Below, one piece after another: positions 7,256-62,170 of a stretch of 64,000 nucleotides of DNA. The notes beneath the pieces are model-generated. The model ran no database searches. It was not told the origin of the DNA and worked only from the letters and a program-made list of their open reading frames with translations. Both the position numbers and the translations under genes were made by a program. Every line of letters begins with the position of its first letter. Position 1 is the stretch's first letter. This stretch comes from Candidatus Shapirobacteria bacterium (GTDB taxonomy: Bacteria > Patescibacteriota > Microgenomatia > UM-FILTER-40-11), in the NCBI GenBank assembly GCA_020059745.1, contig JAGVBK010000002.1, positions 104,301 to 168,300 on the forward strand. The letters run 5' to 3'.

Positions 7256-8062
7256 TTAATATTCGAAAACTTTTTTAAAAGAAGAAACCACTACCTTTCT
7301 GAATTGTGGCCTTATCTGATAAATATTCTTTAGATCATTAACTTTAATGGCAAACATTTCTTTGAAAGCTCTCAAAATATCCCTTACCAGGTTAACTTTA
7401 CTTGACTTACTTATATGTTTCCAAGTAACAGGCAGCTCGACAATTCTGTAATTAAGCTTGTTGCTGACATAAATTACTTCCGGATCCAGCCCCCATCTTT
7501 CTTGAGTCAATCTGGGAAAAACATCGCGACAGACTTGGTAAGAAAAAACCTTAAAGCCGCCGGTAAAATCAGCAATTTTAATTCCTAAAACAGTTTGGAG
7601 AATTTTACTGTGAACCGTGCCGATTATTTCCCTAACCATACTTCTTTTAACCAAGGAAATAGTTTGGGGAAGCTTTTTGCTGCCTACTAAAACTTCATAA
7701 CCTTTATGCATAAAGAGAGAAAATTCTTTAAGGTTTTCAAGAGGAATTGACATGTCGCCGTCTAAAAACATGCCAAAATCAGTATTTACCTCTTTTACTC
7801 CCTGCATGACCGCATATCCCCGGCCTTTGTTTAAGGGATAGGAAATAAGGAAAATTTCCGTTTGGTCAATAATATTTCCGGAGTACTGTCTTTGGAAATT
7901 TTTCAGTAAAGAAAGAGTTTTGTCTTTACTGCCGTCATCAACAAAAATAAGTTTTTCAATCTTAATGCTTTTTGGGCTTTTGTAATTGACAAGATAACCC
8001 AAAGTTTTTTTAAGCCTTTTTTCTTCATTATAGAGAGGGACAATGACAGTTAATGTTTTCAT
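7256..8062 (-). CDS. GT2 family glycosyltransferase (dolichyl/polyprenyl-phosphate sugar synthase-like)
   Basis: VIVPLYNEE...VDDGSKD...DGD motifs are typical of GT2 DPM/DPG synthases. Confidence 0.8.
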   Translation of the reverse strand: MKTLTVIVPLYNEEKRLKKTLGYLVNYKSPKSIKIEKLIFVDDGSKDKTLSLLKNFQRQYSGNIIDQTEIFLISYPLNKGRGYAVMQGVKEVNTDFGMFLDGDMSIPLENLKEFSLFMHKGYEVLVGSKKLPQTISLVKRSMVREIIGTVHSKILQTVLGIKIADFTGGFKVFSYQVCRDVFPRLTQERWGLDPEVIYVSNKLNYRIVELPVTWKHISKSSKVNLVRDILRAFKEMFAIKVNDLKNIYQIRPQFRKVVVSSFKKVFEY

Positions 8063-8063
8063 C

Positions 8064-8348
8064 TTAAAACCCCTTTTCTTTCATGCACCTTTGGTATGAG
8101 TCCCAATCAGGGACACGGGCGCTGCTGCCGCCCTCAGGGTTCTCATAAGTATTGACGCCCACTGTCATACACCCCTGAACAGCATTGTTTTTTATCATTC
8201 TTTCCGATTGCCTGTATCCCAAAACCACCGCTCCAATAAGGGCGGCGCCGATTAAGATAGTTCCGATATCTTTTCTCATTTTTTCACCGATAAAAGCATA
8301 AAATAAATTTTTATACTTTAGTCGATGCGTAACCCGAAGAGTGTTCAT
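8064..8348 (-). CDS. small membrane/secreted hypothetical protein
   Basis: 94-aa ORF. One TM helix (ILIGAALIGAVVLG). Real start is possibly the internal MRKD. GC content is intermediate, at the edge of the GC-rich island. Confidence 0.4.
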   Translation of the reverse strand: MNTLRVTHRLKYKNLFYAFIGEKMRKDIGTILIGAALIGAVVLGYRQSERMIKNNAVQGCMTVGVNTYENPEGGSSARVPDWDSYQRCMKEKGF

Positions 8349-8403
8349 TTACCTTATGAAGGTAAACTACTAACCCTCCGGGTTACGCGATCGGCATGCA
8401 ATG

Positions 8404-9549
8404 CTACTTGACAAGTCCCAGATACTGCTCCCGCCAGAATGTGGCTGCAATAGCCATTCCTTCCCACCCTACGGGAATTCTGGCTTTGGGATAGCTTGGG
8501 ATCAATATCAAGTTTGGGTCGGTCGGCACCTCCAGACGCTCTCCGTCGAACGGAAATTCGAACGGATTCCTGATGAAAAACGCGTCTTGGGGAGGTGCCT
8601 GCCAGTTGCCGTTGCCCAGATCGACGAGCCTGACACTCGGTGCAAGGCCGAATGTTGAGCGGATCCACGCTTCGTTCACCTGTGAAGGCGAAAAAGCGGG
8701 GGTCGCACTGGGAACGACGGGCGTTGGGGCAGCTAGCGGAACTGGTGTCTGAGTTGGCACAACTTGGGCTACCAAAGTAGCTGTCGGCTGTACCAAACTT
8801 GAGACCTGACCGATTTGACCAACTGAGGTCACAGGGATCACGCCAGTGATCCTGTGATACTCGTCAATACTGAAAGGCCTGAACGTGATCCCCTGTACAG
8901 GACCACACCAACCAGCAGGAATTCCTGACCCAACTGCTTCTGGGGGAAAACCCTCTTCTAGGGTCCTCCCGTGCAACTCCCGCTGTCTGCGGTCCGCCAT
9001 CCAGCCATCTTGCCGGAAAGGAGTGAAGTTACAAACCTCAATGGAAACAATATTCCCAAAGAGGTCTTTCTCCTCCGGCACCTTCCAGCTCCATGGCTCA
9101 CCCCTAGCCCTGCTAACCTCGCTGGGCTCAATGGACGGCTGAGCCTGTCTCCTTGTTGCAAGGATAACAAACTCATCCACTGACCTTGGCCAATCCTCCA
9201 TGACCTCAAGGCCTAGAACCCTGATGTCGTCCAGAGTCTGACCGCCAGTCAGAGTAAGCCCGAAAGCCTGAACCCTAGGTGACGGTGCCATTGCAACCGT
9301 CGGTTCGGATTGAACAGCCTCCTGACCGGGAGTCGGAGTCACAAGGACCTCAACAACCCGAGTCACTTCGACCGGAACCTCCTTCTCGACAACGACGGTC
9401 TCCTTGACCACCTGAGGGACGACCCTGGTGACCTCGACCGGGACCGTCTCCTTGACGATCTCGGGCGTTGGTGTCAGAGCACTTTCCCTGAGCGCACAAC
9501 CCGTGATCATCACGATAGCCACCATTACAACCAGGAATATCATCTTCAT
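8404..9549 (-). CDS. lipoprotein, hypothetical (GC-rich island)
   Basis: 381 aa. Signal peptide with lipobox-like ITGC. Tandem VKETVPVEVTRVV/KEVPVEVTRVVEV repeats and Pro/Thr-rich linkers. Region is about 57% GC. Confidence 0.6.
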   Translation of the reverse strand: MKMIFLVVMVAIVMITGCALRESALTPTPEIVKETVPVEVTRVVPQVVKETVVVEKEVPVEVTRVVEVLVTPTPGQEAVQSEPTVAMAPSPRVQAFGLTLTGGQTLDDIRVLGLEVMEDWPRSVDEFVILATRRQAQPSIEPSEVSRARGEPWSWKVPEEKDLFGNIVSIEVCNFTPFRQDGWMADRRQRELHGRTLEEGFPPEAVGSGIPAGWCGPVQGITFRPFSIDEYHRITGVIPVTSVGQIGQVSSLVQPTATLVAQVVPTQTPVPLAAPTPVVPSATPAFSPSQVNEAWIRSTFGLAPSVRLVDLGNGNWQAPPQDAFFIRNPFEFPFDGERLEVPTDPNLILIPSYPKARIPVGWEGMAIAATFWREQYLGLVK

Positions 9550-9559
9550 CTCAACCCTC

Positions 9560-10156
9560 CTAATCCCTCTGATGTCTCCGAAGAAACCCTGGAATGTCCA
9601 ACTCCGAACCGGGCGGATCCAGAGGATTTTCAGGCGTCTGCCTTTCCTCTTTCATCTCCGCCGCCCTGAAATTCAACCGTTCCAATTCCTCGATAAGCTC
9701 CTCCCTTTTCTCGTTCAGCTTCTTGATCTCATTTCTCGCCTGCTCGAGTTGAACTCTTTTTTCGCCAACGACACTAGTCAACTCTGCCACAGTCTTCTGT
9801 AGTTCGAGAACTTCTCCGTACAACTCATTTTTTCGACGCTGGCCTTCCTCAATCTTCTCGTCTGTTGTTGAGGCAACTTCCTCTTTCCTCCCTCTCACGT
9901 TCAAGATTATGGAAAGAACGAAAAGCAAAACCCCAACGACCAGGAGAATCCAGACCCAAGGCTCAAAAATCGCGAAAAAGTCGACGAGGACAAGCCCAAC
10001 AACAATATTTACCAGGCTCACCCCCAAAAACACAGTACCAACAATAAGTAAGACCAACACCAGGCGCTTCATGTCTTCTTCTCCTTTGCATGCCGATGTC
10101 AAAGAACTACTTTTGGCTCCTTCCAAGAACCGCAATTGGTCCTCTTTCTGGGCCAA
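9560..10156 (-). CDS. membrane protein with coiled-coil, hypothetical (GC-rich island)
   Basis: 198-aa ORF. The likely start is the internal MKRLV at about 10072. Two TM helices followed by a charged coiled-coil (EELIEELERL). Confidence 0.5.
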   Translation of the reverse strand: MAQKEDQLRFLEGAKSSSLTSACKGEEDMKRLVLVLLIVGTVFLGVSLVNIVVGLVLVDFFAIFEPWVWILLVVGVLLFVLSIILNVRGRKEEVASTTDEKIEEGQRRKNELYGEVLELQKTVAELTSVVGEKRVQLEQARNEIKKLNEKREELIEELERLNFRAAEMKEERQTPENPLDPPGSELDIPGFLRRHQRD

Positions 10157-10285
10157 AAGACCGATTTTTCAAAATCGGAATAATACCCACTATTAATGAA
10201 CATCTTTCCGACTTCAAAAGACAACCAGCCGGAGAGAGAAAGATACGCTTGCGCGTAAACAAACTCTCTCCGGCGAGATGCCATC

Positions 10286-11086
10286 CTACTCGAACCAAAC
10301 CACTGCGGTCCAGACCTTAACGTGCCCCGGCCCCTTGAATTTGTCTAGGTTTTCCCCAAGAATTGGGTTCCACCCGGTGACCAAGGCATTCTCGGGCACA
10401 GCGAGCATGACAGGGTTTCCACCACTGTTATAGTCAAAGCTGCACCCATCCTTCCGAAGGGCCCAGACACCACCAGTGACAACATTGGCTTGAAGCCAAT
10501 CGATGCTTGGGCAACCCTCGGGTTGGTCCGGAATCGGGAGCCTCGGCAAAGGCGGATTGAACACCACTGGGAGAAACAAAATACTTTCTCCAGGTGTCGG
10601 AACCACCGTTGGCTCGGCGGTTGCCATTGCAGTTGGTTCCGGCGTGGCGGTCGGCGTTGCCGTTACAGTTGGTACTGTAACCGTTGGCTCGGCCGTTGCC
10701 GTGGCGCTCTGTGGCTCAATCCACAGAACCCCGTCCCAAAATTCTCCCGAACCAGGTCCTTCCACCAGAAGGTCTTTTTGGCCCTCCGGCTCCGGCCGCG
10801 GATCCCAACCAGTCATCTTGGATCCACCCGCGGGGACAACGAGCAAGATCGGCTCCTCAAACGGGCCTCTTCCGCTCTCGAAAACAAAATCACAACCTTC
10901 GTCGGGCCCGACTTTCCACATCGAGAGTTCACCCCCGATGTTTTCCGCGACCCACTCGAGATCCGGGCACTCTTGCGGGGGTTCCGGAATGGCAACCTCC
11001 GCTGAGAGCTGGAACGGCAAAACTGCCGCCAGCGCGACCACAACCGCGAGTACAAGACTGCGCTTCATTTCCCCTCCTGGGATCAT
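10286..11086 (-). CDS. secreted protein with internally duplicated Cys-containing domain, hypothetical (GC-rich island)
   Basis: 266 aa. Signal peptide (likely start MKRSLVLAVVV). Two homologous domains (PQECPDLEWV...GCDF...TGWDP and PEGCPSIDWL...GCSF...TGWNP) separated by a T/P/A-rich linker. Confidence 0.6.
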   Translation of the reverse strand: MIPGGEMKRSLVLAVVVALAAVLPFQLSAEVAIPEPPQECPDLEWVAENIGGELSMWKVGPDEGCDFVFESGRGPFEEPILLVVPAGGSKMTGWDPRPEPEGQKDLLVEGPGSGEFWDGVLWIEPQSATATAEPTVTVPTVTATPTATPEPTAMATAEPTVVPTPGESILFLPVVFNPPLPRLPIPDQPEGCPSIDWLQANVVTGGVWALRKDGCSFDYNSGGNPVMLAVPENALVTGWNPILGENLDKFKGPGHVKVWTAVVWFE

Positions 11087-11216
11087 AAGGATGGCAAATA
11101 CTCAATGTGCTTCTGGTCTCACCAGCCAGATTGGCGCTTACGCCTTTCTAGTTATTGAAACCAGAAAAGGAAATTGAACTCCTAGTTTCCTTTCCCGGCT
11201 TCAACCGGAAACTTCT

Positions 11217-11894
11217 TTATTTTTTAAGACGAAGCAGCATGTATCCGGCAAGACCGGCAATTGAGGTTAAAGGGGCAACGAAAAGCAAACTAGAACCTGT
11301 GGCAGGAGTTTCACCTAAAACTTTTTTAACTTTGGTAACACAAACTTTAGAAGTGTCTTCTCTTTCTTCACCGCCGAATTTAGCCCTGACAGTGTTTTTG
11401 ACATCACAGTCAAAATCTTTATCACTCGGAGTGGAAACAACAACTGTTTCAATCTGTTTCTCTTCTGATTCGCCAGGTCCTAAATCTAAAATATCAAAAG
11501 TAAGGCTTCCTGACTCAAGCTTTAACTCAGCCGGAAGAAAGTCTGTAACAGTCACTTTTTCAAAAGTGCTGTTGCTGTTGTTAATGATTTTTATTCTGAA
11601 AATAACTTTTTCGCCAATGCTGAATTTATAGCCTTCAGGAGTAATGTCGGCTAAATTGTCTTCGAACCTTTTGTCAATCGGGCTCCAAACCTTTTTATCT
11701 AAAACAAGCTCTTCAACTTCGGTACAGACTTCGCCGCCGCCGTATAAAGATTCGCAACGGATTGCTCCAAAAGCATTTTTAGGAGAAATAATAAAAGCCG
11801 CAATAAATAAAATTGCGGTTAACAAAGCATGTTTCCTGTCCATTTTCATTTTTATTAAGGCTAAATAATAAAGACATGGCGTATTATAGGGCAT
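11217..11894 (-). CDS. cell-surface DUF11-like protein with C-terminal sortase sorting signal (paralog A)
   Basis: Likely start is MKMDRKH at about 11849. Signal peptide, Cys-rich N-terminus, DUF11-like beta domain (VTVTDFLPAEL). C-terminus is LGETPATG, then a hydrophobic stretch, then RLKK. Confidence 0.65.
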   Translation of the reverse strand: MPYNTPCLYYLALIKMKMDRKHALLTAILFIAAFIISPKNAFGAIRCESLYGGGEVCTEVEELVLDKKVWSPIDKRFEDNLADITPEGYKFSIGEKVIFRIKIINNSNSTFEKVTVTDFLPAELKLESGSLTFDILDLGPGESEEKQIETVVVSTPSDKDFDCDVKNTVRAKFGGEEREDTSKVCVTKVKKVLGETPATGSSLLFVAPLTSIAGLAGYMLLRLKK

Positions 11895-11974
11895 GTTTAT
11901 TGCTTTGTCAACTGCCGATTTCTTGATTTTAGTAAACTTTTAAGAGATAATATCGCCGTTTACTAGAGGATATT

Positions 11975-12730
11975 ATGGAAATAATTCTTTTTGATTCATC
12001 CTGGGAAAAGGAAAAAATAATACCGGTTGATATTCCGGTTCCTAAACCTGTGGAACCAAAAATTTCTTCTTCTTTCCCTTTCGCAAAATTTGCCAGAGGC
12101 CTTGCTTTGGGCTTAATCGGCATTTCTCTTTTTGTTTTTGGCGCAGCAGTTTTGCCAATAATCAAGCTGGAATTAAGCTACCGCCTTAATCCTAAAAATG
12201 AAGCTGAAGCAAGAGAATACTTTCCCAAAACTCCAAGTTATGAGGTTGCCTTAGAAAACAAAAAGCAGCTTGCCTCACAAGAAGCAGCCAAATACGGGGT
12301 TGATACAGATTTTTCTCTGGTCATCCCTAAAATTTCTGCTACCTCAAAAATCATTGCCAATGTGGACCCGGCAGACGAAAATAAATACAAAGCTGCTCTT
12401 AAAAATGGAGTTGCCCACGCCAGCGGCACCAAATTCCCTGGCAGCAAAGGCACTATTTATCTTTTTGCCCATTCCACCAACACTTTAGTTAATGTTTCCC
12501 GCTACAATGCTGTCTTTTATCTAGTTAAAGAGCTGGAACCCGGAGACCAGGTTATCATCTTTTTTGCCGGTCTAAAATATTCGTACCGGGTAACCGAAAA
12601 GGTCATCACTACTCCAGAAGATTTATCTTTGATAAAAGACAACCAATCAACTGAAAAGCTAATTCTTCAAACCTGTTGGCCGCCGGGAACAACCTTAAAA
12701 CGGCTCATGGTTGTAGCAGAAAGAATTTAA
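11975..12730 (+). CDS. sortase (paralog A)
   Basis: 251 aa. N-terminal membrane anchor, catalytic His in LFAHS, catalytic Cys in LILQTCWP (TLxTC-like), conserved Arg downstream. Divergently paired with its substrate gene. Confidence 0.8.
   Translation: MEIILFDSSWEKEKIIPVDIPVPKPVEPKISSSFPFAKFARGLALGLIGISLFVFGAAVLPIIKLELSYRLNPKNEAEAREYFPKTPSYEVALENKKQLASQEAAKYGVDTDFSLVIPKISATSKIIANVDPADENKYKAALKNGVAHASGTKFPGSKGTIYLFAHSTNTLVNVSRYNAVFYLVKELEPGDQVIIFFAGLKYSYRVTEKVITTPEDLSLIKDNQSTEKLILQTCWPPGTTLKRLMVVAERI
12281..12395. repeat. near-identical 115-bp tract shared by the two sortase paralogs (second copy at 13871-13985)
   Basis: gaagcagccaaatacggggttgatacagatttttctctggtcatccc... is about 98% identical between copies, while the flanking gene sequence has diverged. 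Further short identical tracts lie near the catalytic Cys codons (12650-12690 and 14250-14290). Confidence 0.8.
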
Positions 12731-12845
12731 CTTTCCATTTAAAAGTTCCCGAAATTAGTTTTCAAAGAGCTTAAATTGAAAATAATGGTTGGGGTTTAGA
12801 GCAGTTTTAGAAGCATGTAACAACATGGTAATAACTTTGTTAAAG

Positions 12846-13490
12846 CTATCTTCTTTTACCAAAGAAGACCAAGGCCAGACCCAAGAGTCCGTTTACTAAA
12901 GAAAGACCCAAAGTTGCTGGCATGGCACCGCTTCCGGTTTTCGGTAAAACCGTTGGTTTCCTCTCAACAACTTCTCGTCTGCTTACGCAAATTCTTGAGG
13001 TATCTTTATCCTCAATTCCGTCAGCTTTAACCGCTACTTCGTTAAAATCACAGATAACATCCTTATCTTTTGGAAATCTGCCTTCACTTACTACCCTTAC
13101 CCTGATATCCCTTTCCTCCACTTCATTGCGGTCAAAATCTGTAATATCAAAATCCAAATCTCCAGAAACAAACTCTAAAAATGAAGGAAGAGTATCTCTT
13201 ACCTCAACCCTGTCAAAGTCTCTTTCTCCTGTATTTTCCACCCTAATCCTGAAAACAACTTCATCCCCGGAAAAAAACTCATGGTCAGTAAAATCAAGGT
13301 TGTCAACAAAACGGCCGTCTCTTGGGTCCTGCACTTTTTTGTCAACATCAATTTCAATCGGCGGGCAAACATCATACTGAGGCTCACAAATATCAGAAGC
13401 AGCCGCATCTTTCCTCAAAACAAAAAAAAATGAAGCGGATAAAAAGATTAAGCCAAGTTTTCTTAATGTCATTTTGCTTACAATTTCCAT
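12846..13490 (-). CDS. cell-surface DUF11-like protein with LPKTG sorting signal (paralog B)
   Basis: C-terminal VLPKTGSGA, then a hydrophobic helix, then GKRR. N-terminal signal peptide (likely start MTLRKLG). DUF11-like domain (VEVRDTLPSFLEF). Confidence 0.75.
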   Translation of the reverse strand: MEIVSKMTLRKLGLIFLSASFFFVLRKDAAASDICEPQYDVCPPIEIDVDKKVQDPRDGRFVDNLDFTDHEFFSGDEVVFRIRVENTGERDFDRVEVRDTLPSFLEFVSGDLDFDITDFDRNEVEERDIRVRVVSEGRFPKDKDVICDFNEVAVKADGIEDKDTSRICVSRREVVERKPTVLPKTGSGAMPATLGLSLVNGLLGLALVFFGKRR

Positions 13491-13603
13491 TTCTATTTAT
13501 TATTCACAGGGTGCCAAATCGTGTCAAGCAGAAAGAAACATTTTTAGTTCAAATTTATTTTTTTAGCTTGAATTTCCTAGCTTTTTTTTAATATAAACAG
13601 AGT

Positions 13604-14320
13604 ATGGAAATAATTCTTTATGAGGCTAAAGATAAAAAAAGCCTTGTTTTAAAAGAGTTTACAAAACTTTCTTTCATAAACTCCAAAGCCGCAGCCGAAT
13701 ACCTGGGCTACAGCTTTCTTGCCGCCTCCTTAATGTTTCTATTGGTCGGCTTTGCCCCGATTATTAAAGAAGAAGCAAAATATCAACTAAAAAGACTTTT
13801 TACTTTCTCTGCTCCGGAGGCAAGCGTTGAAAGTGTTTTTTTTGAAAACTCAAAAAAAATTGTTGAAGAGGAAGCAGCCAAATACGGGGTTGATACAGAT
13901 TTTTCTCTGGTCATCCCCAAAATTTCTGCAACCTCAAAAATCATTGCCAATGTGGACCCGGCAGACGAAAATAAATACAAAGAACTTCTAAAAACCGGAG
14001 TGGCACACGCGACAGGCACAAAGTTTCCCGGAAACAATGGCACTATTTATCTTTTTGCCCATTCCACCAACAACCCGGAAAACATTGTCCGCTACAATGC
14101 GGTTTTTTACCTTTTAAAAGAACTTGAGCCTGAAGATGAAGTCATTGTTTTTTTTGCCGGCCAAAAATTTGTCTATAAAGTTACCAAAAACTTTATTGCC
14201 GAAGCCGGTGACCTAAAATGGCTCTCGGGAGATGAGAATGAAGAAAAGCTAATTCTTCAAACCTGTTGGCCGCCGGGGACAACTTTCAAACGGCTCATTG
14301 TTGAAGCTAAACCTTTATAA
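13604..14320 (+). CDS. sortase (paralog B)
   Basis: 238 aa. LFAHS and LILQTCWPPGT motifs. Shares near-identical DNA tracts of about 115 bp with paralog A. Confidence 0.8.
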   Translation: MEIILYEAKDKKSLVLKEFTKLSFINSKAAAEYLGYSFLAASLMFLLVGFAPIIKEEAKYQLKRLFTFSAPEASVESVFFENSKKIVEEEAAKYGVDTDFSLVIPKISATSKIIANVDPADENKYKELLKTGVAHATGTKFPGNNGTIYLFAHSTNNPENIVRYNAVFYLLKELEPEDEVIVFFAGQKFVYKVTKNFIAEAGDLKWLSGDENEEKLILQTCWPPGTTFKRLIVEAKPL

Positions 14321-14359
14321 AGGTCTTTCTTAAAGAAAGCTTCATTTTATGTTAAAATA

Positions 14360-16528
14360 TTGATGGACAGAAACCAAATGACTGGAGAAGAATTACCTTT
14401 CTCATTGATTGAGATCCGTTTACCTAAATCAAGCGAAAAAACCCCGGAAGCGGCGGCTCAGCTTTTTGCGGCCTTTTCCTCCCTTCCTAAAAAGTCTTTT
14501 TTGTCTTTTAAACCTCCAGTAAGCATTTGTTTTGAAATTGTTTGTGTTGACCAGGTCGTCCATTTTCTCATTTCCTGCCCTAAGGAAATGAAAGGTTATG
14601 TTGAAAGCCAGCTTTCTGCCCAATATCCGGAAAGCATCCTTCTGGAAATTCCCAAAGATTATCTTGCCGGCTACACCCAAAACTCAAACCCAAACCTGGG
14701 CCAGCTTACTTTATCAAACAGCTTTTATCTGCCTTTGCGAACCTATAAGGAAGTTAAAGACTCTGATCTTATTTCTTCTGTTTTGGGCGCTATGTCCAAA
14801 GCCGGGCCGGAAGATTTTATGGCTATCCAATTTATTATCGCCCAAGCCGGTAACTGGCAAGGCTATGCCCAGGGAATCATTGACAGAGGAATCCCCTCAG
14901 GAGAGGAAGGAAAAACTCTTCCCCACCCCCAGGCAAAACACATTGCTGAAAAAATAAGCAGCGGTGGCTTTTGGACCGCCATAAGAATCATTGCCAGTTC
15001 AGAAGAACTTCTAAGAAATATTTCCAATTCCTTTTCTTCCTACCAAAGCGATGTCAATGGCTTAAAACTTAAAAAAATAAGCCCGAGAAACAAAAAAAAG
15101 CTGCTTGAATCTTGTCTCAAAAGGTCTTTCGAAATGGCTCCTGCTAACCAGGTTCTTAACCTTGACGAGCTCGCTTCTCTTTGGCACCCTCCATCAAAGC
15201 ATTTGTCGGGCATTAAAAACATCATGTGGACACAAACCATTATGAGTGAGCCTCCCCTAAACCTGCCTACAGCAATCGACCTTAATGAAGCTGACAAAAA
15301 AGAAATCAATTTCATAGCCCGGACTGAGCATAAAAACAAGGTGGCAACCTTTGGCATTAAGAAAAAAGACCGTAGAAGGCATGTTTACATTATCGGGAAA
15401 AGCGGTACCGGAAAATCAACTTTAATTGCCAATATGGCCATAAACGACTTAAGGAACCGGGAAGGTCTGGCAGTTATTGATCCTCACGGCGATTTAACTG
15501 AAATTCTTTTGGATTATATTCCCTCTTTTAGGATAAACGAAACTTGCTATCTTGACCCGAGCGACACCGCCAACCCTTTTCATCTTAATCCCCTTGAGGT
15601 TAAAAACCCGGCCCATAGAGAACTTGTGGCCTCGAATATTGTCGCCATTTTTTATAAGCTCTACCACTATTCCTGGGGGCCAAGGCTTGAATACATTTTA
15701 AGAAATACAATCCTGACTTTACTGCAAACCCCGCAGCCAACACTTCTTCAGATTACGGAAATGCTTTCCAATAAAAACTTCAGGAAAAGAGTGGTTGATA
15801 ACCTCAATGACCCGGTCTTAAAAAGCTTCTGGGTTAATGAGTTTGAAAAAATGTCTGAAAAAATGATGAATGAAGCGGTTTCTCCGATTTTAAATAAAGT
15901 CGGCCAGTTTACTTCCTCTCCCACCATCAGACAAATTGTCGGCTCTTATCACTCAACAGTTGACCTTGAGGGTATCATGAATTCCGGCAAAGTTTTGCTT
16001 GTTAACCTTTCCCAAGGAAAAATTGGAGAAGACAATGCTGCGCTTTTAGGTGCCATGATTATTACCCAGCTTCAACTGGCGGCCATGAACAGGATTAATG
16101 TTGCTGAAGAACAAAGGAGAGATTTTTATCTTTATGTTGACGAGTTTCAAAACTTTGCCACCAGTGCCTTTGTTAAAATACTTTCTGAGGCAAGAAAATA
16201 CCGCTTAGACCTTTGTCTGGCAAATCAGTATGTCGGCCAGCTTGAAGAAGACCTGCAAAAAGCAATTTTCGGGAATGCGGGAACTTTAATTTCTTTTGTT
16301 GTCGGTGCCGGAGATGCAGGCTACATGGCCCAGGAATTCGGCCAGATTTATAAAGAAGAAGATTTAGTTAATCTGGGCATGTATCAGGTGGCAATGAAGC
16401 TTTGCATCGACAACTTAACATCTTCTCCGTTTTTGGCTACCACCATGCCTCTTCCAAGATGCAAAAACCAAAACAGGTCAAAAGTGCTTAAGGTCTCCAA
16501 GGAAAGACACACGGTCAAGCAAAAATAA
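14360..16528 (+). CDS. VirD4/TrwB/TraD-like P-loop ATPase (coupling-protein-like), no TM segments
   Basis: 722 aa. Walker A IIGKSGTGKST followed by VIDPHGD, as in TrwB/TraG. Walker B LYVDEFQNF. Arg/Gln sensor region EARKYRLDLCLANQ. N-terminal roughly 340-aa domain of unknown function. Confidence 0.65.
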   Translation: MMDRNQMTGEELPFSLIEIRLPKSSEKTPEAAAQLFAAFSSLPKKSFLSFKPPVSICFEIVCVDQVVHFLISCPKEMKGYVESQLSAQYPESILLEIPKDYLAGYTQNSNPNLGQLTLSNSFYLPLRTYKEVKDSDLISSVLGAMSKAGPEDFMAIQFIIAQAGNWQGYAQGIIDRGIPSGEEGKTLPHPQAKHIAEKISSGGFWTAIRIIASSEELLRNISNSFSSYQSDVNGLKLKKISPRNKKKLLESCLKRSFEMAPANQVLNLDELASLWHPPSKHLSGIKNIMWTQTIMSEPPLNLPTAIDLNEADKKEINFIARTEHKNKVATFGIKKKDRRRHVYIIGKSGTGKSTLIANMAINDLRNREGLAVIDPHGDLTEILLDYIPSFRINETCYLDPSDTANPFHLNPLEVKNPAHRELVASNIVAIFYKLYHYSWGPRLEYILRNTILTLLQTPQPTLLQITEMLSNKNFRKRVVDNLNDPVLKSFWVNEFEKMSEKMMNEAVSPILNKVGQFTSSPTIRQIVGSYHSTVDLEGIMNSGKVLLVNLSQGKIGEDNAALLGAMIITQLQLAAMNRINVAEEQRRDFYLYVDEFQNFATSAFVKILSEARKYRLDLCLANQYVGQLEEDLQKAIFGNAGTLISFVVGAGDAGYMAQEFGQIYKEEDLVNLGMYQVAMKLCIDNLTSSPFLATTMPLPRCKNQNRSKVLKVSKERHTVKQK

Positions 16529-16531
16529 AAA

Positions 16532-30901: not shown

Positions 30902-31789
30902 TTAATCTAGTTCTTCAAGTATATCCTCAACCCGTGTAACCAATTTGGCTCCCTTTTTAATTAAGCTCGCTGTTCCTTCAGACAAAGGAGAATTTACCGG
31001 TCCCGGCACGGCAAAAACTTCTCTTCCCTGTTCTGCTGCCAAAGAAGCGGTAATTAAAGACCCTGAATCAAGGGCTGCTTCTGTAACCAAAACTCCCCGG
31101 CAAAGCCCGCTAATTATTCTGTTTCTGGCGGGAAAGTTTGCCGGTGAAAGCTTTGTCCCAAAAGGAAACTCCGACAAAATTGCCCCTTTGTTTTTAACAA
31201 TTCTTTCTGCAAGCAATTTGTGCTCAGGCGGATAAACCCGGTCAAGCCCGCTGCCGATAACTGCAACGGTAATTCCACTGTTCTCGAGAGCTACCTCGTG
31301 GGCCACTCGGTCAACCCCGCGCGCCAATCCCGAAACAATCACCCAATTTTTTAAAACAAGTTCTTTAACAAGAGCCCGGGTTACCCTGTCGCCATAAGGG
31401 GTCATTTTCCTGCTGCCGACAACAGCTATCGTTTTCTTTCTAAAAATTTCCTTCAGGCTGGTTCTCTCTGACAATTTTACATATAAAACTGACGGTGCTG
31501 AATCAATTTCTTTTAACAAATCTGGGTAATTTTCTTCTCCGCTGAAAACTGCTTTTACCCCTTCATCGGAAAACCGAACAAAATCCGAACCAAAGTTATA
31601 TTTTTTCCTGAAGATTAAAAATTTATCGACTGTTTTTTGCGGCAAACCTATTTCTCTTAACTGTCTTTCTCCGGCATTAAAGGCTTTCTCTGCAGAACCA
31701 AAATAGTCTAAAAGAAGCTTAAAACGGACCGGGCCAATGCCCTCAAAAAGCGAAAAAGCAAGCCAGTATTTTTTTTCCCCTTCTTCCAT
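30902..31789 (-). CDS. dprA: DNA processing protein DprA (Smf)
   Basis: Rossmann-like VVGSRKxTPYG...VSGLARGVD...AVIGSGLDxVYP motifs. Confidence 0.85.
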   Translation of the reverse strand: MEEGEKKYWLAFSLFEGIGPVRFKLLLDYFGSAEKAFNAGERQLREIGLPQKTVDKFLIFRKKYNFGSDFVRFSDEGVKAVFSGEENYPDLLKEIDSAPSVLYVKLSERTSLKEIFRKKTIAVVGSRKMTPYGDRVTRALVKELVLKNWVIVSGLARGVDRVAHEVALENSGITVAVIGSGLDRVYPPEHKLLAERIVKNKGAILSEFPFGTKLSPANFPARNRIISGLCRGVLVTEAALDSGSLITASLAAEQGREVFAVPGPVNSPLSEGTASLIKKGAKLVTRVEDILEELD

Positions 31790-40766: not shown

Positions 40767-41139
40767 TGCTGCTCCCCATGGCCGGAAATTAAGGTTTTTC
40801 CCTCTATGTCGCAGCATTTAATTGCTTGATTTTTGTGCCTGGGTAGGCTAGACTTTAAATAGTCCTGCCAGCAAGGCAAAGGTTTTGAAAACGCTTTTCT
40901 CTACAATTTCAATGCGTAAGGGAAAGCGAAGTTCTAAAAGAGCGTGCTTTTTTAGACAGCTTACCCACCTGGTTTTCCAGGGAAATGCGCTCAAAACCAC
41001 CTATATTGGCGGGACTTTCCACATCCAAAACCACTCTTTTCCACCCACAAAACCATTTACCCTTGAGGCTTTTTAAGGTAAAATATACATGTAAATATTT
41101 TTTGCCGAAGTAACTCAGCGGCCCGCCCGCCACGCAAGC

Positions 41140-41225
41140 CAGCTTGCTGGTGTTGCGGGCAGGTAGAGCAAATGTTTTGCCTACCCGCAGTGCTACAGCG
41201 TTGCAGGCGGGCCTGCCCACAGAAG
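41140..41225 (+). other. GC-rich multi-hairpin element immediately upstream of tRNA-Thr(TGT)
   Basis: Hairpin TGCGGGCAGG-[tagagcaaatgttttg]-CCTACCCGCA, plus outer GGCCCGCC/GGCGGGCC pairing. The loop mimics the AGAGC...GTTTTG (D-stem to anticodon) sequence of the downstream tRNA. A homologous element sits upstream of tRNA-Pro. Confidence 0.4.
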
Positions 41226-41229
41226 CCTA

Positions 41230-41303
41230 GCCCTTCTAGCTCAACGGCAGAGCGACGGTTTTGTAAACCGTTGATCAGGGTTCAATTCCCTGGAAGGGCT
41301 CCA
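41230..41303 (+). tRNA. tRNA-Thr (anticodon TGT)
   Basis: Cloverleaf: acceptor GCCCTTC/GAAGGGC, anticodon loop TTTGTAA, T-loop TTCAATT, encoded CCA. Confidence 0.85.
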
Positions 41304-41403
41304 GTTTAGGTAGGCGGGTAAACATAGGTCGTCAGTTCAATCCTGACCGTCGGCTCTTGATAGTCGGTTAGTTTATTAGTATGTTAGAATTTAGTATTAA
41401 TTT

Positions 41404-42839: not shown

Positions 42840-43301
42840 TTATTTCTTCTCCGGAGGTTCTGGATATTTTAAAAATTTTGTTTTCTCCCTGTTAACCTTT
42901 AATGTTCTGGCGTGTCTTCGCCCATCAACAGGGCACCTAAGCTCAGAAAGCACTATTGCCATTGCCGGAAGTTTTTCCCCTCTCTTTATAATTTCCCTGG
43001 GCAGTTCAACCCCCTTTTCTGTTTCAAAGCCAATGATAAAATTATTGTAATAAAGAGGGCCTTGACAGCGTCTGCATCTTTTAGGTTCTCCCGAAGTCTC
43101 TCTTGCCGGGATGTCGCGGCCAAGGACAAACACATCGCTGTGCCACTCTTCAATTTCATTTTTACGGGCTTTTGGGGAATTTTCAGGGTGTCTTGGGTGA
43201 GGCTTAGGGAGGATCGGTGAAGAATATTGGACCTCAAAACCAGGCATAGTCATCTGCCCAAAAGAAGAATGTCCTTCAAGTATTAATTCCTTTACAGACA
43301 T
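42840..43301 (-). CDS. hypothetical protein with CxxC...C zinc-ribbon-like segment
   Basis: 153-aa ORF. RCRRCQGP...CPVDG motif. No family recognised. Confidence 0.45.
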   Translation of the reverse strand: MSVKELILEGHSSFGQMTMPGFEVQYSSPILPKPHPRHPENSPKARKNEIEEWHSDVFVLGRDIPARETSGEPKRCRRCQGPLYYNNFIIGFETEKGVELPREIIKRGEKLPAMAIVLSELRCPVDGRRHARTLKVNREKTKFLKYPEPPEKK

Positions 43302-43416: not shown

Positions 43417-44238
43417 TTAAAAAATAAAGTGGCCGGCATCAAAAAATACAAATCGGTTAGCCAGATAAAGATGTGAGTTGAGCATGCTTTCCACCACTTC
43501 CCTGTCTCTTTCGCTGCTGCCAATGTAATAAGTAATGTCCGGACCTACTTTTTCTATCATTCCGGCCAAGTCCTCACCTGCCGAACCTATAGGTTTATTG
43601 GGAACCACCAAGAGCTTGTCTTTCCCCAGCCTTTCCAGCCTTCTTACTGTATCATCGTCTATAAAAGGAAAATAGCTAATTGGCCCCCGAAAAGGCTCAG
43701 CCAGTTTTCTTAGTGGTCCTACTTTTTGCAAGGTCTCGTCAGAAAGATAAAAACGGCTGCTCCAAAAAATTGTGAGATCAGAAGCTTTTATTATCCTGGC
43801 AAAAGCCAAGGCTGTTTTTTGGCTTATCTTGCCTCTTTCTTTTGCCTCTCCAAAAGCTTTTTTAATAGCAATTTCACCGTTAAAAACACCGTTTACCACC
43901 TCGTGTAGGGTGTGGGCCGGACTGACAAAAACACCGTCAAAATCAGTAATTGTCAGCACCTTACATTCTCCGCCCTGTCCCAGTACTCCTGACAGCATTC
44001 TTTCCGAAGAGGTGAACTCGTTTAGGTTAACTCTTCTTCCCAACCTTAATCCAAGAAGGCTTCTGTCAAGAACGCTATTAAGATTGGGAACACCATTGCC
44101 GTCATAAATAATCCTGCTCTCCGCCCCTATCCTTCTAATTACCCTTCTGCATTCTTCTGCCCGGCCAAAACAAGGGACAGTTGGGTTAATAAATGTTTCA
44201 ACAGACATTGTTAGTCTTGAAGTTTTTGCTTCAACCAA
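43417..44238 (-). CDS. HAD-superfamily hydrolase (IIB-like)
   Basis: HAD motif I TITDFDGVF. Real start is probably the internal MSVETF. Adjacent to the sugar nucleotidyltransferase. Confidence 0.5.
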   Translation of the reverse strand: MVEAKTSRLTMSVETFINPTVPCFGRAEECRRVIRRIGAESRIIYDGNGVPNLNSVLDRSLLGLRLGRRVNLNEFTSSERMLSGVLGQGGECKVLTITDFDGVFVSPAHTLHEVVNGVFNGEIAIKKAFGEAKERGKISQKTALAFARIIKASDLTIFWSSRFYLSDETLQKVGPLRKLAEPFRGPISYFPFIDDDTVRRLERLGKDKLLVVPNKPIGSAGEDLAGMIEKVGPDITYYIGSSERDREVVESMLNSHLYLANRFVFFDAGHFIF

Positions 44239-61971: not shown

Positions 61972-62029
61972 CCCCCAAAATGCTAAAATTCTATTGATAG
62001 CGAGCGTAGTTCACCCGCCTGCAAAAGCT

Positions 62030-62092
62030 GACGCTTTAGCGTCTGCGGGCAGGTCGGTAGAATGCACGGTTCAGCCTGCCCGCCAACAACAA
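62030..62092 (+). other. GC-rich hairpin element immediately upstream of tRNA-Pro(CGG), homologous to the 41140-41225 element
   Basis: GACGC-ttta-GCGTC hairpin, then TGCGGGCAGG-[tcggtagaatgcacggttcag]-CCTGCCCGCC. The loop copies the TCGGTAGAACGCTCGGTTC D-arm sequence of the adjacent tRNA-Pro. Confidence 0.4.
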
Positions 62093-62095
62093 CGC

Positions 62096-62170
62096 CGGAA
62101 TGTAGTTCATCGGTAGAACGCTCGGTTCGGGACCGAGAGGTAGAGGGTTCAATTCCCTCCATTCCGACCA
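62096..62170 (+). tRNA. tRNA-Pro (anticodon CGG)
   Basis: Acceptor CGGAATG/CATTCCG, D-arm GTTCATCGGTAGAAC, anticodon loop TTCGGGA, T-loop TTCAATT, encoded CCA. Confidence 0.8.

Follow-up and report, generated by a model that had tools for sequence, protein, structure and literature searches.

Cognate tRNA genes split by mobile tRNA-carrying cassettes in Patescibacteria

tRNA genes are targets for several kinds of inserted DNA. Phages, ICEs and genomic islands integrate into them, often in the anticodon or T loop, carry in attP a replacement 3' segment that keeps a working tRNA, and leave a tRNA fragment as a footprint (reportedly described in Reiter 1989 and Williams 2002). Those elements are kilobases long, encode an integrase, and duplicate only the 3' part of the tRNA as a direct repeat. 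The disrupted tRNA genes of Archaea and red algae include non-canonical bulge-helix-bulge introns and split and permuted tRNAs (reviews PMC4090602, PMC3978253, PMC3218864). In these, several insertions can occur per gene, in the D, anticodon and T regions, GC-rich helices lie next to tRNA pieces, and related inserts recur at different positions; the inserts are removed by the splicing endonuclease at a bulge-helix-bulge site and the interrupted gene is the functional one. In Patescibacteria, tRNA genes carry group I introns, self-splicing ribozymes of 184-894 nt in the only copy of the tRNA, including at position 35/36 (PMC13011429).

Other small elements are also relevant. REP/REPIN with RAYT, Rickettsia palindromic elements, Neisseria Correia elements and yeast mitochondrial GC clusters are short, GC-rich, imperfect palindromes that are non-autonomous, occur in many copies in AT-rich compact genomes and sometimes lie inside genes. 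None of them is known to carry a gene, to be confined to tRNA genes or to replace the function it destroys, and the mobilizing enzyme is known for REP (RAYT). Homing introns and inteins, and conceptually the engineered "cleave-and-rescue" gene drives, are selfish elements that sit in an essential, conserved gene without killing the host, which depends on the element once it is in place. Introns and inteins avoid harm by splicing themselves out.

Here we describe small GC-rich insertion cassettes that split resident tRNA genes and bring a complete tRNA with the same anticodon. The insert is about 105 nt, encodes no protein, carries a whole tRNA between inverted GC-rich ends and leaves both resident halves without any duplication, in contrast to the integrative elements. 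Compared to the archaeal and algal genes, the host is bacterial, the junctions lack the bulge-helix-bulge geometry, the insert holds a complete cognate tRNA and the interrupted gene decays. Compared to the group I introns of the same phylum, the inserts are 29-133 nt, match no ribozyme family and carry a second, intact tRNA. The hairpin-only copies look like the small palindromic repeats, although no enzyme corresponding to RAYT was found in the window. The element appears to avoid harm by bringing a spare copy, which is the logic of a rescue drive, and no nuclease is known for it. Literature searches restricted to open-access papers and preprints found only the group I introns in Patescibacteria tRNA genes and no earlier description of this layout.

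We examined a window of 64,000 nt (the whole stretch of DNA analyzed) from Candidatus Shapirobacteria bacterium (GCA_020059745.1, contig JAGVBK010000002.1). The preliminary description, made from the sequence alone, had noted a conserved hairpin upstream of tRNA-Thr(UGU) and tRNA-Pro(CGG) together with nearby tRNA fragments, and this observation was confirmed, with all sequence features at the stated coordinates. The exact 9-mer GCGGGCAGG/CCTGCCCGC, counted on both strands, occurs 3 times in 64 kb against 0.33 expected, always just upstream of one of these two tRNAs, and 0 of 100 shuffled sequences reached 3. With one mismatch allowed the count was at chance (8 against 8.0). The signal is therefore the exact copies and their position next to two tRNAs. 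The same locus is present in independent assemblies, in JGI and Logan contigs. The features of both loci are collected in Table 1, in which L numbers denote retrieved loci.

Table 1. Features of the two interrupted tRNA loci in the 64,000-nt window.
Position	Strand	Feature	Basis
41079..41084	+	-10-like box TAAAAT of the resident tRNA-Thr(UGU) gene, 19 nt upstream of its first base	Promoter scan; the same TGnTAAAAT box precedes tRNA-Thr(GGU), tRNA-Arg and locus 2; function inferred
41104..41121	+	Resident (outer) tRNA-Thr(UGU) relic, piece 1: acceptor 5' strand, D-stem 5' strand, D loop up to GG	Matches GCCGAAGTAACTCAG.GG of the outer Thr(tgt) in L057 and the native genes in L006-L008
41122..41163	-	42-nt hairpin-only ("empty") copy of the cassette, inverted, inserted in the D loop of the relic	Reverse complement reads CCTGCCCGC...GGCGGGCGGG; without it the D loop is the normal AGCGGTA
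41155..41163 with 41180..41188		Hairpin stem: GCGGGCAGG pairs with CCTACCCGC	Read from the sequence
41164..41179	+	Relic piece 2: D-loop end, D-stem 3' strand, anticodon-stem 5' strand, anticodon loop up to G35	Loop of the hairpin in the preliminary description; in silico rebuilding
41180..41211	+	32-nt hairpin-only copy, direct orientation: CCTACCCGC-AGTGCTACAGCGTT-GCAGGCGGG	Abuts the next cassette end to end
41212..41318	+	107-nt cargo cassette: left end CCTGCCCAC (41212-41220), leader, complete tRNA-Thr(UGU) with encoded CCA (41230-41303), trailer, right end GTAGGCGGG (41310-41318)	tRNA called by ARAGORN and Rfam (69 bits); matches the family pattern; tRNA 0.97 identical to the cassette tRNA of L203, which sits in a different outer gene
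41319..41355	+	Relic piece 3: U36 onward, anticodon-stem 3' strand, variable loop, T arm, acceptor 3' strand, discriminator	Three non-pairing positions in the rebuilt gene: A6.G67, A10.C25, A27.A43
61984..61989	+	-10-like box TAAAAT, 10 nt upstream of the locus-2 relic	Read directly from the sequence; function inferred
62000..62013	+	Locus 2: relic of a resident tRNA, most likely tRNA-Pro(CGG), piece 1 (acceptor 5' strand, D-stem 5' strand)	With the insert removed, its D arm is almost the same as that of tRNA-Pro (GTTCATCGGTAGAAT against GTTCATCGGTAGAAC)
62014..62053	-	40-nt hairpin-only copy, inverted, in the D loop of the relic	Reverse complement reads CCTGCCCGC-AGACGCTAAAGCGTCAGCTTTT-GCAGGCGGG
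62045..62053 with 62075..62083		Hairpin stem: GCGGGCAGG pairs with CCTGCCCGC	Read from the sequence
62054..62074	+	Relic piece 2: TCGGTA GAAT G CACGG TTCAG; ends after anticodon position 36; the anticodon reads CAG where CGG is expected	Four Pro(cgg) cassettes in metagenomes sit at the same junction, between GTTCGG and GAC
62075..62095	+	Left end CCTGCCCGCC plus an 11-nt leader of the cargo cassette	
62096..62170	+	Cargo tRNA-Pro(CGG) with encoded CCA; trailer, right end and 3' half of the relic missing	Called by ARAGORN and Rfam (68 bits); close to the cassette tRNA of L161, which still has its right end; L008 has the same truncated layout

To determine what the fragments are, we removed 41122-41163 and 41180-41318 in silico, and this gave a 72-nt tRNA-Thr(tgt) that ARAGORN recognizes. 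The fragments are three pieces of one resident tRNA-Thr(UGU) gene. The 5' fragment had been likened to tRNA-Tyr at 41401, but that likeness is generic, and the 3' fragment is a real T arm plus acceptor 3' strand (41331-41355) that pairs with 41104-41110. The hairpin loops are tRNA sequence running from the 3' strand of the D stem to the anticodon, and they belong to a broken resident tRNA rather than to the adjacent intact one.

Relatives with the same synteny (def-fmt-L28-M50 protease-tRNAs-VanW) carry an intact tRNA-Thr(UGU) in the same place and no such element there. The outer gene is 0.79-0.83 identical to the native genes of L006-L008 but only 0.70 identical to the adjacent tRNA, while the inner gene groups with cassette-borne genes (0.97 and 0.82). 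In contrast, the same termini split tRNA-Thr(GGU) in L007, where the outer gene is perfect, and in L008, where the 3' half is lost; that gene is intact in the window. Further cases in named genomes are L050 and L057. Contigs of the closest relatives, L005 at 82% protease identity, L010 at 88% and L013 at 69% DHH-protein identity, end before or inside the loci.

The interpretation offered in the preliminary description was only partly supported. It was right that the hairpin is a recurrent element rather than chance and that the tRNA fragments are footprints of insertion. On the other hand, partial duplications of the kind left by integrases were not supported, as the fragments are non-duplicated parts of one split gene. 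The proposed mimicry of a D arm was not supported either: the stem is two cassette termini, the left end of the tRNA-carrying cassette and the same end of an inverted hairpin-only copy, and the loop is the stretch of resident tRNA caught between two insertion points. A conserved regulatory or processing leader, which had also been suggested, is unlikely.

Several other readings were considered and dropped. We first took 41104-41357 as a split tRNA-Gly(GCC) with an intron, until relatives showed that the outer gene is tRNA-Thr(UGU), broken between G35 and U36. ARAGORN with introns up to 300 nt and lowered thresholds did not find the outer gene because of the D-loop insert, Rfam E-value scans of both loci found nothing but the tRNAs, and a repeat search of the whole window did not link the two loci because the copies differ by indels. 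Encoded CCA appeared to mark foreign tRNAs, as both window cargos have it and the other three tRNAs in the window lack it; however, most cassette cargos lack CCA and the tRNA-Pro allele of L010 has it. AAATGCTAAAAT, which lies on both sides of locus 2, is not a target duplication but the genome's common extended -10 box, and it also precedes other genes.

To assess how widespread the layout is, we scanned metagenomes with a pattern of the cassette ends. This gave at least 120 stretches, of which 118 hold a tRNA, of 30 different anticodons; the two without a tRNA are in high-GC loci and look like chance. Exact excision, from the first base of the left end to the last base of the right end, rebuilt an outer tRNA in 69 cases (69 sense, 0 antisense) with no bases duplicated. 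In 59 of these ARAGORN called the same anticodon for the inner and outer tRNA. At least four of the other ten are visibly cognate relics that ARAGORN misfolded, for example CGGTTTTG and TAAACCGT on either side of the insertion, called Phe. No target consensus was found around the junctions beyond what tRNA consensus sequence gives. Every host that could be named is in Patescibacteria: Shapirobacteria, Levyibacteriota, Moranbacteria, Magasanikbacteria, Portnoybacteria and the Parcubacteria group.

A full cassette is about 100-130 nt, with left end CCTGCCCGCC, a short leader, a complete tRNA gene, a short trailer and right end GGCAGGCGGG. The two ends and part of the leader and trailer pair into a 12-17 bp helix. 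In every copy retrieved this helix has a U.G at position 3 and a C.A at position 7, but these bases were fixed by the search pattern and their constancy is not independent evidence. Hairpin-only derivatives of 29-42 nt also exist, in both orientations. Only 1 of 118 cassettes has a TANAAT box in its leader, while 21 of 68 outer genes have one within 45 nt upstream, against 7 of 68 in a control region.

The inner and outer genes differ in their state of preservation. Both window cargos are recognized as tRNAs by Rfam RF00005 (69.0 and 68.0 bits against a threshold of 29), and across 25 Arg cassettes 18 of 32 predicted cloverleaf pairs have compensatory changes, on both sides of the pair. The Thr cargos of the window and L203 likewise differ by a paired change in the T stem (CAGGG/CCCTG against CAGAG/CTCTG). 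In contrast, stem-mismatch marks average 1.49 in outer genes and 0.20 in inner ones (Wilcoxon p = 6.6e-5), and about half of the outer genes cannot be rebuilt at all. However, 38 of 59 outer genes still have perfect stems, which fits recent insertion but also fits outer genes that remain in use.

The cassettes also appear in different genetic backgrounds. Cassettes 0.94-0.99 identical sit in unrelated outer genes and flanks, and cassettes with identical leader and trailer sit at different loops of cognate genes. The inner tRNA of L107 matches the outer tRNA of L127 in the anticodon arm, L173 is nested three deep, and L106 has stacked 5' halves.

With respect to a mobilizing enzyme, none was found inside any copy. 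No transposase, integrase or other recombinase, reverse transcriptase or HUH (Y1) domain is in the window, whose 63 ORFs were scanned, and no left-end...ORF...right-end form occurs in the 1.65 Mb of retrieved loci, a sample that does not include whole genomes. The cassettes resemble MITEs in their terminal inverted repeats, small size, lack of coding capacity and many copies, but have no target-site duplication. Unlike REP/REPIN elements, which are extragenic, nearly all copies lie inside tRNA genes or their relics.

The most likely explanation, which we hold with fair but not full confidence, is that both loci are resident tRNA genes invaded by a family of non-autonomous, protein-less foldback cassettes that disrupt and replace. 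In this view, cassettes insert into DNA with no target duplication and no loss of bases, in the loop-coding parts of tRNA genes: D arm 21/22 or 23/24, anticodon loop 33/34 to 37/38, and T loop 56/57. The insertion would kill the resident gene, and the cargo tRNA, in the same orientation and without a promoter of its own, would be transcribed from the resident promoter and cut out by the ordinary tRNA-end processing enzymes. The cell would then depend on the cargo while the resident halves decay. We infer that insertion into tRNA loops is promiscuous and that in these small genomes, probably with one gene per anticodon, only insertions that bring a cognate replacement survive; hairpin-only copies would be tolerated only in halves that are already dead. 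The cargo would itself be a fresh target, giving serial replacement and nests. Our data establish the anatomy, exact insertion, the cognate rule, the sense-only orientation, mobility between genetic backgrounds, decay of the outer gene and constraint on the cargo, whereas insertion at the DNA level, expression from the resident promoter and processing of the cargo, selection as the cause of the cognate rule, and a mobilizing enzyme acting in trans are inferred. No known transposition chemistry matches the combination of no target duplication, a foldback between the two ends and loop-directed targets.

It could be speculated that the cassette is an intron, removed from the transcript by cleavage at the base of the terminal helix and ligation of the outer halves, so that one gene yields two tRNAs of the same anticodon, with spread by reverse splicing into tRNA loops and reverse transcription. 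The exactness of the insertions, their restriction to the three loops exposed in a folded tRNA, the outer genes with perfect stems and the many tRNA introns of Patescibacteria, including at 35/36 (PMC13011429), are consistent with this; however, it is unlikely given the excess of mismatches in outer genes, the many that cannot be rebuilt and the 3' halves that are simply missing in window locus 2 and L008. In addition, hairpin-only copies are found inverted, which insertion into the sense transcript does not predict. By inspection, both junctions abut a continuous helix of 12 bp or more without the two 3-nt bulges and 4-bp helix of a bulge-helix-bulge site, and in D-arm cases the right end runs straight into the D-stem 3' strand. 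No splicing endonuclease or ligase domain is in the window, the only 64 kb of the genome that was available. There is no Rfam intron or ribozyme match at either locus, and 29-133 nt is too short for a group I or group II intron. Another possibility, which we also regard as unlikely, is cargo-directed homing, in which the cargo tRNA, or the relic halves flanking it in donor DNA, act as a guide or as homology arms, with spread by gene conversion after DNA uptake and possibly with help from a nuclease that cuts intact tRNA genes. The cognate rule across 30 anticodons, insertion into copies of a cassette's own cargo tRNA (L106, L173), the usual placement of near-identical cassettes at the same position of the same tRNA type and the presence of DprA in the window are in its favor. 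On the other hand, related cassettes at different loops of the cognate gene cannot be produced by recombination through the flanks alone, inner and outer genes are often only about 70% identical, which is poor for pairing, no nuclease was identified, and hairpin-only copies, with no cargo to guide them, still land in tRNA loops.

The two readings of the preliminary description are very unlikely. tRNA genes are classic integration sites, with crossover in the anticodon or T loop (reportedly, Williams 2002), and a relative, L012, has a large serine recombinase element at the tRNA-Pro site; however, attL/attR-type footprints of a phage or island integrase are contradicted by the rebuilding of exactly one gene and its low identity to the adjacent tRNA. 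The 107-nt protein-less insert, the absence of a recombinase domain in the window and 0 pattern matches in 2.9 million viral contigs also speak against them, and the last of these speaks against a phage origin. Native hairpins of tRNA precursors, for example RNase III stems, would fit a leader-trailer helix that brackets the cargo much as a processing stem would and a region that folds more stably than shuffled sequence (z = -2.8 for 41098-41229 and -4.6 for 41098-41362). The locus-2 hairpin, however, is not more stable than shuffles (z = -1.1), the hairpins are absent from the orthologous tRNA in relatives and always bounded by halves of another tRNA, and near-identical copies lie in unrelated backgrounds. 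This reading is contradicted as a sole explanation, although a secondary role of the helix in processing the cargo is not excluded.

A more speculative possibility, which we consider improbable but have not ruled out, is that the cognate rule is not only a survivor effect. The cassette would use its own cargo, either the tRNA or pre-tRNA with its terminal helix or the tRNA gene as DNA, to recognize the matching resident gene and insert into one of its loops. This would be a protein-less, self-guiding "disrupt-and-rescue" element, a natural counterpart of engineered rescue gene drives, mobilized by a yet unidentified enzyme that acts on hairpin loops. It would also make Patescibacteria a living model for how split, permuted and intron-bearing tRNA genes arise.

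These findings have consequences for the genomes concerned. tRNA annotation will contain unrecognized relics and nests, tRNA gene trees in Patescibacteria will not follow species trees, and contigs may break at these loci. The insertion chemistry, loop-directed, without target duplication and with foldback termini, could be a new DNA- or RNA-joining activity, although if the mobilizing enzyme belongs to a known transposase family the element would be better classed with that kind. The cassettes are a bacterial, ongoing example of tRNA genes being split in the D, anticodon and T loops, which bears on the long-running debate over the origin of split, permuted and intron-containing tRNA genes and on why tRNA genes attract mobile DNA. 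If confirmed, this is a new strategy for a selfish element, which parasitizes essential single-copy genes by replacing them rather than by splicing itself out, and which turns over tRNA genes horizontally across a major bacterial phylum.

The window is a Patescibacteria (Microgenomates-type) genome segment of about 40% GC that carries def, fmt, rpmG, 6S RNA and five tRNA genes. The features listed in the preliminary description, namely a recurrent hairpin upstream of two tRNA genes and nearby tRNA fragments, were all present, and that observation is confirmed. The exact 9-mer GCGGGCAGG or its complement occurs three times in the window, against 0.33 expected, and 0 of 100 shuffled sequences reached three. 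All three copies lie within 80 nt upstream of tRNA-Thr(tgt) or tRNA-Pro(cgg). In contrast, when one mismatch was allowed the count was at chance. An Rfam search found nothing at these sites except the tRNAs. The 6S RNA gene, which lies between the M50 protease gene and the tRNA promoter, matched RF00013 at 38.2 bits (E = 2e-6), below the gathering score of 46.4; the relatives L007 and L008 carry two tandem copies of this element.

To determine the origin of the tRNA fragments, we compared the locus with that of relatives having about 65% protein identity, which keep the synteny def-fmt-L28-M50 protease-[tRNAs]-VanW. These relatives carry an uninterrupted tRNA-Thr(tgt), GCCGACTTAGCTCAGCGGTAGAGC..TGTTTTGTAAACA..GTCGGCT, whereas the window holds the same gene in three pieces. 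Deleting 41122-41163 and 41180-41318 in silico gave a 72-nt tRNA-Thr(tgt) that was recognized by ARAGORN, with three non-pairing positions (A6.G67, A10.C25 and A27.A43). This outer gene is 0.79-0.83 identical to the native genes of the relatives and only 0.70 identical to the intact tRNA-Thr(tgt) lying inside it. The inner gene, on the other hand, is 0.97 and 0.82 identical to tRNA-Thr(tgt) genes carried inside the same kind of insert in other organisms. The pieces described previously as a 5' fragment and an isolated T arm are therefore the two ends of one displaced resident gene.

The inserted DNA is bounded by imperfect inverted repeats, with a left end CCTGCCCGC(C) and a right end (G)GCAGGCGGG, and locus 1 contains three such units. 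The hairpin noted in the preliminary description is the pairing of the inverted copy's end with the left end of the next unit, and its loop is the stretch of resident tRNA between the two insertion points. Locus 2 has the same design: the relic 5' part and an inverted hairpin-only copy are followed by the left end, a leader and tRNA-Pro(cgg), while the right end and the relic 3' half are missing. A -10-like box (TAAAAT) lies 19 nt upstream of the first relic and 10 nt upstream of the second, as it does for ordinary tRNA genes of this genome.

Coordinates of the features in the window and in other loci (L numbers designate retrieved loci)
Sequence	Coordinates	Strand	Feature	Position in the resident gene
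Window, locus 1	41104-41121		Piece of the resident tRNA-Thr(tgt)
Window, locus 1	41122-41163		Inverted 42-nt hairpin-only copy	D loop
Window, locus 1	41155-41163		End of the inverted copy that pairs with 41180-41188
Window, locus 1	41164-41179		Piece of the resident tRNA-Thr(tgt)
Window, locus 1	41180-41211		Direct 32-nt hairpin-only copy (left end 41180-41188)	Between G35 and U36
Window, locus 1	41212-41318		107-nt cassette with the complete tRNA-Thr(tgt)	Between G35 and U36, abutting the previous copy
Window, locus 1	41319-41355		Piece of the resident tRNA-Thr(tgt)
Window, locus 2	62000-62013 and 62054-62074		Relic 5' part with the D arm of tRNA-Pro and an anticodon loop reading TTCAG where TTCGG is expected
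Window, locus 2	62014-62053		Inverted 40-nt hairpin-only copy
Window	40859-41019	+	6S RNA gene
Window	about 8000-16530		Region of higher GC
Window	11217-12730 and 12846-14320		Two duplicated gene pairs, each a sortase plus a DUF11 surface protein
Window	14360-16528		TraG/VirD4-like coupling ATPase
Window	30902-31789	-	DprA gene
Window	42840-43301 and 43417-44238	-	Two ORFs with no Pfam match
L008	5462-5737		tRNA-Tyr insert with different termini
L057	about 7950-7690	-	tRNA-Thr insert with different termini
L011/L012	1-3000		Large serine recombinase gene and 276-aa gene in the place of the tRNA-Pro body
L106	2371-2800		Relic tRNA halves with further GC hairpins
L107	300-329		Hairpin-only copy or pair of termini apparently outside any recognizable tRNA context
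L132	1225-1260		Hairpin-only copy or pair of termini apparently outside any recognizable tRNA context
L097	9636-9792		Hairpin-only copy or pair of termini apparently outside any recognizable tRNA context

Similar arrangements were observed in other genomes. In L007 the termini enclose a complete tRNA-Thr(ggt) inside a perfectly rebuildable outer tRNA-Thr(ggt), and in L008 the same insert has lost its right end and the outer 3' half; in the window that gene is intact. L050 (Levyibacteriota) has the insertion between G35 and U36 in tRNA-Thr(tgt), and L057 has a 32-nt hairpin-only copy in the D arm of an otherwise perfect outer gene. In addition, tRNA genes are nested in cognate relics by inserts with different termini. 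In L008 a tRNA-Tyr insert has ends ATCCCCA...TGGGGGAT and has replaced the D-loop-to-anticodon segment, while in L057 a tRNA-Thr insert has ends CCCAGCA...ACTGGGAT and carries its own promoter-like TTGCCA/GATAAAAT. The phenomenon is therefore wider than the one family of termini.

To assess how common the arrangement is, we scanned the metagenome collection with the pattern CCTGCCCRM-N50-80-GTYCRAWTC-N14-40-GYAGGCGGG, which puts no constraint on the flanks. The scan yielded at least 120 stretches. Of the 120 examined, 118 hold a tRNA, with 30 anticodons represented, and the two without a tRNA (0.62 and 0.66 GC) look like chance matches. Exact excision rebuilt an outer tRNA in 69 cases, 69 in the sense and 0 in the antisense orientation, and in 59 of these ARAGORN called the anticodon of the cargo. 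At least four of the ten rebuilt outer genes with a different call are cognate relics that ARAGORN misfolded because of extra inserts. The pattern had 0 matches in the viral contig collection. Every host that could be named is in Patescibacteria, from both the Microgenomates and Parcubacteria branches, and the median GC of the loci is 0.41.

The junctions cluster in three places, with no duplicated or lost bases and no sequence consensus: the D arm, at 21/22 (GGATA/GAGC) or 23/24 (GGTAGA/GC); the anticodon loop, at 33/34 to 37/38; and the T loop, at 56/57 (GGTTC/GAATCC). However, the target range may not be strictly tRNA loops, as a few hairpin-only copies, or pairs of termini, appear to lie outside any recognizable tRNA context (L107, L132 and L097). 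In L097 a right end abuts position 8 of a tRNA, with about 100 nt of AT-rich DNA between the termini.

The 5' flank of the cassette, from the left end through the leader, is 12-28 nt (mode 19), and the 3' flank, from the trailer through the right end, is 13-32 nt (mode 17). A typical pair is CCTGCCCGCCATGGCCTGA ... AGGCGATGGCAGGCGGG. RNAalifold applied to 25 Arg cassettes gave a terminal helix plus a cloverleaf, with compensatory changes in 18 of 32 pairs, nearly all of them in the tRNA stems. The cargo is therefore under selection as a tRNA. The U.G at position 3 and the C.A at position 7 of the terminal helix were fixed by the search pattern, so that their constancy in the survey is not independent evidence, although the copies found without the pattern (the window, L007 and L057) share them with small variations. 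Only 1 of 118 cassettes has a -10-like box of its own. In comparison, 21 of 68 outer genes have one within 45 nt upstream, against 7 of 68 in a control region.

Comparisons among the loci indicated mobility and turnover. Cassettes that are 0.94-0.99 identical lie in unrelated outer genes and flanks (L116 and L146, L157 and L185, and L203 and the window), and cassettes with identical leader and trailer lie at different loops of cognate genes (L175 in the D arm against L194 in the anticodon loop, and other pairs). The cargo of one locus is the outer gene of another in its anticodon arm (Ile, L107 and L127). The outer gene of L175 is itself flanked by decayed termini inside a still older relic, L173 is nested three deep, and L106 shows stacked 5' halves with one complete cassette at the center. 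The DprA gene in the window (DNA_processg_A, E = 5.6e-75) is compatible with natural transformation as a route for cassette exchange.

Among 59 cognate pairs, stem-mismatch marks averaged 0.20 in inner genes and 1.49 in outer genes (Wilcoxon p = 6.6e-5). About half of all outer genes cannot be rebuilt, because they are truncated or carry further hairpin inserts. Hairpin-only copies are found mostly in such relic halves, and in both orientations. Relic halves also often carry further 15-19-nt GC hairpins of other sequence families (TCCGCCTCTGGCGGA, TCAGCCAGAGGCTGA and CGGCGGGTAAATGCCGC), mostly in the D loop, as in L106, L102, L146, L119, L194 and others; in L106, units containing them are tandemly repeated with a 70-nt period.

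The two ORFs with no Pfam match lie between rpmG and the NTP-transferase gene, where relatives have different genes, and this is therefore a variable spot next to the tRNA cluster. In L011/L012 (GCA_018830165.1, JAHJSG010000062.1), a relative whose DHH protein is 83% identical, only the last bases of the tRNA-Pro (..TCGACCAGCTCTAAAATGC) remain next to the DHH gene. The tRNA-Pro site is a hot spot for a second, unrelated kind of element. In the window, the region of higher GC (0.47-0.52 against about 0.40 elsewhere) holds the two sortase and DUF11 gene pairs, which are about 80% identical repeats, followed by the TraG/VirD4-like ATPase, and it may be a secretion or conjugation-type module.

We compared the cassette with several known families, and it failed defining tests for each of them. 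Unlike integrase att footprints, it shows no repeat and no integrase. It has no ribozyme and is too short for a group I or II intron, and its junction geometry is wrong for a bulge-helix-bulge intron. In contrast to MITEs there is no target duplication, and no autonomous partner was found in 1.65 Mb of loci; in contrast to REP elements the copies are intragenic, and no RAYT gene was found in the window. The cassette works most like a cross between a tRNA-targeting integrative element, which restores the gene it enters, and a palindromic mini-repeat. Full-text literature searches, limited to open-access papers and preprints, turned up only group I introns in Patescibacteria tRNA genes (PMC13011429) and nothing describing a tRNA nested in its cognate gene.

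Two main alternatives could be considered. One possibility is that the insert is excised at the RNA level, so that the outer gene stays functional. We favor insertion into DNA instead, as some copies are inverted, 3' halves are freely lost and the outer genes decay. Another possibility is active targeting guided by the cargo or by homology; however, we favor promiscuous insertion filtered by selection as the reason for the cognate rule, since hairpin-only copies, which cannot rescue anything, are seen mostly in halves that are already dead. The remaining readings, integrase footprints and native regulatory hairpins, both raised in the preliminary description, are contradicted by the in silico rebuilding of a single outer gene, by the identity comparisons of outer and inner genes, and by the absence of the elements at the orthologous gene in relatives. 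The interpretation offered in that description is partly supported.

Taken together, the data fit a non-autonomous mobile cassette that inserts into loop-coding parts of tRNA genes, destroys the resident gene and supplies a cognate replacement expressed from the resident promoter. Insertion at the DNA level, the selective filter and expression of the cargo from the resident promoter are inferences from sequence, and no mobilizing enzyme was found in any copy, in 1.65 Mb of loci or in the window. The anatomy of the cassette and its evolutionary behavior, on the other hand, are well supported by the analysis, and what is present at these tRNA genes appears to be a widespread and previously undescribed kind of element.
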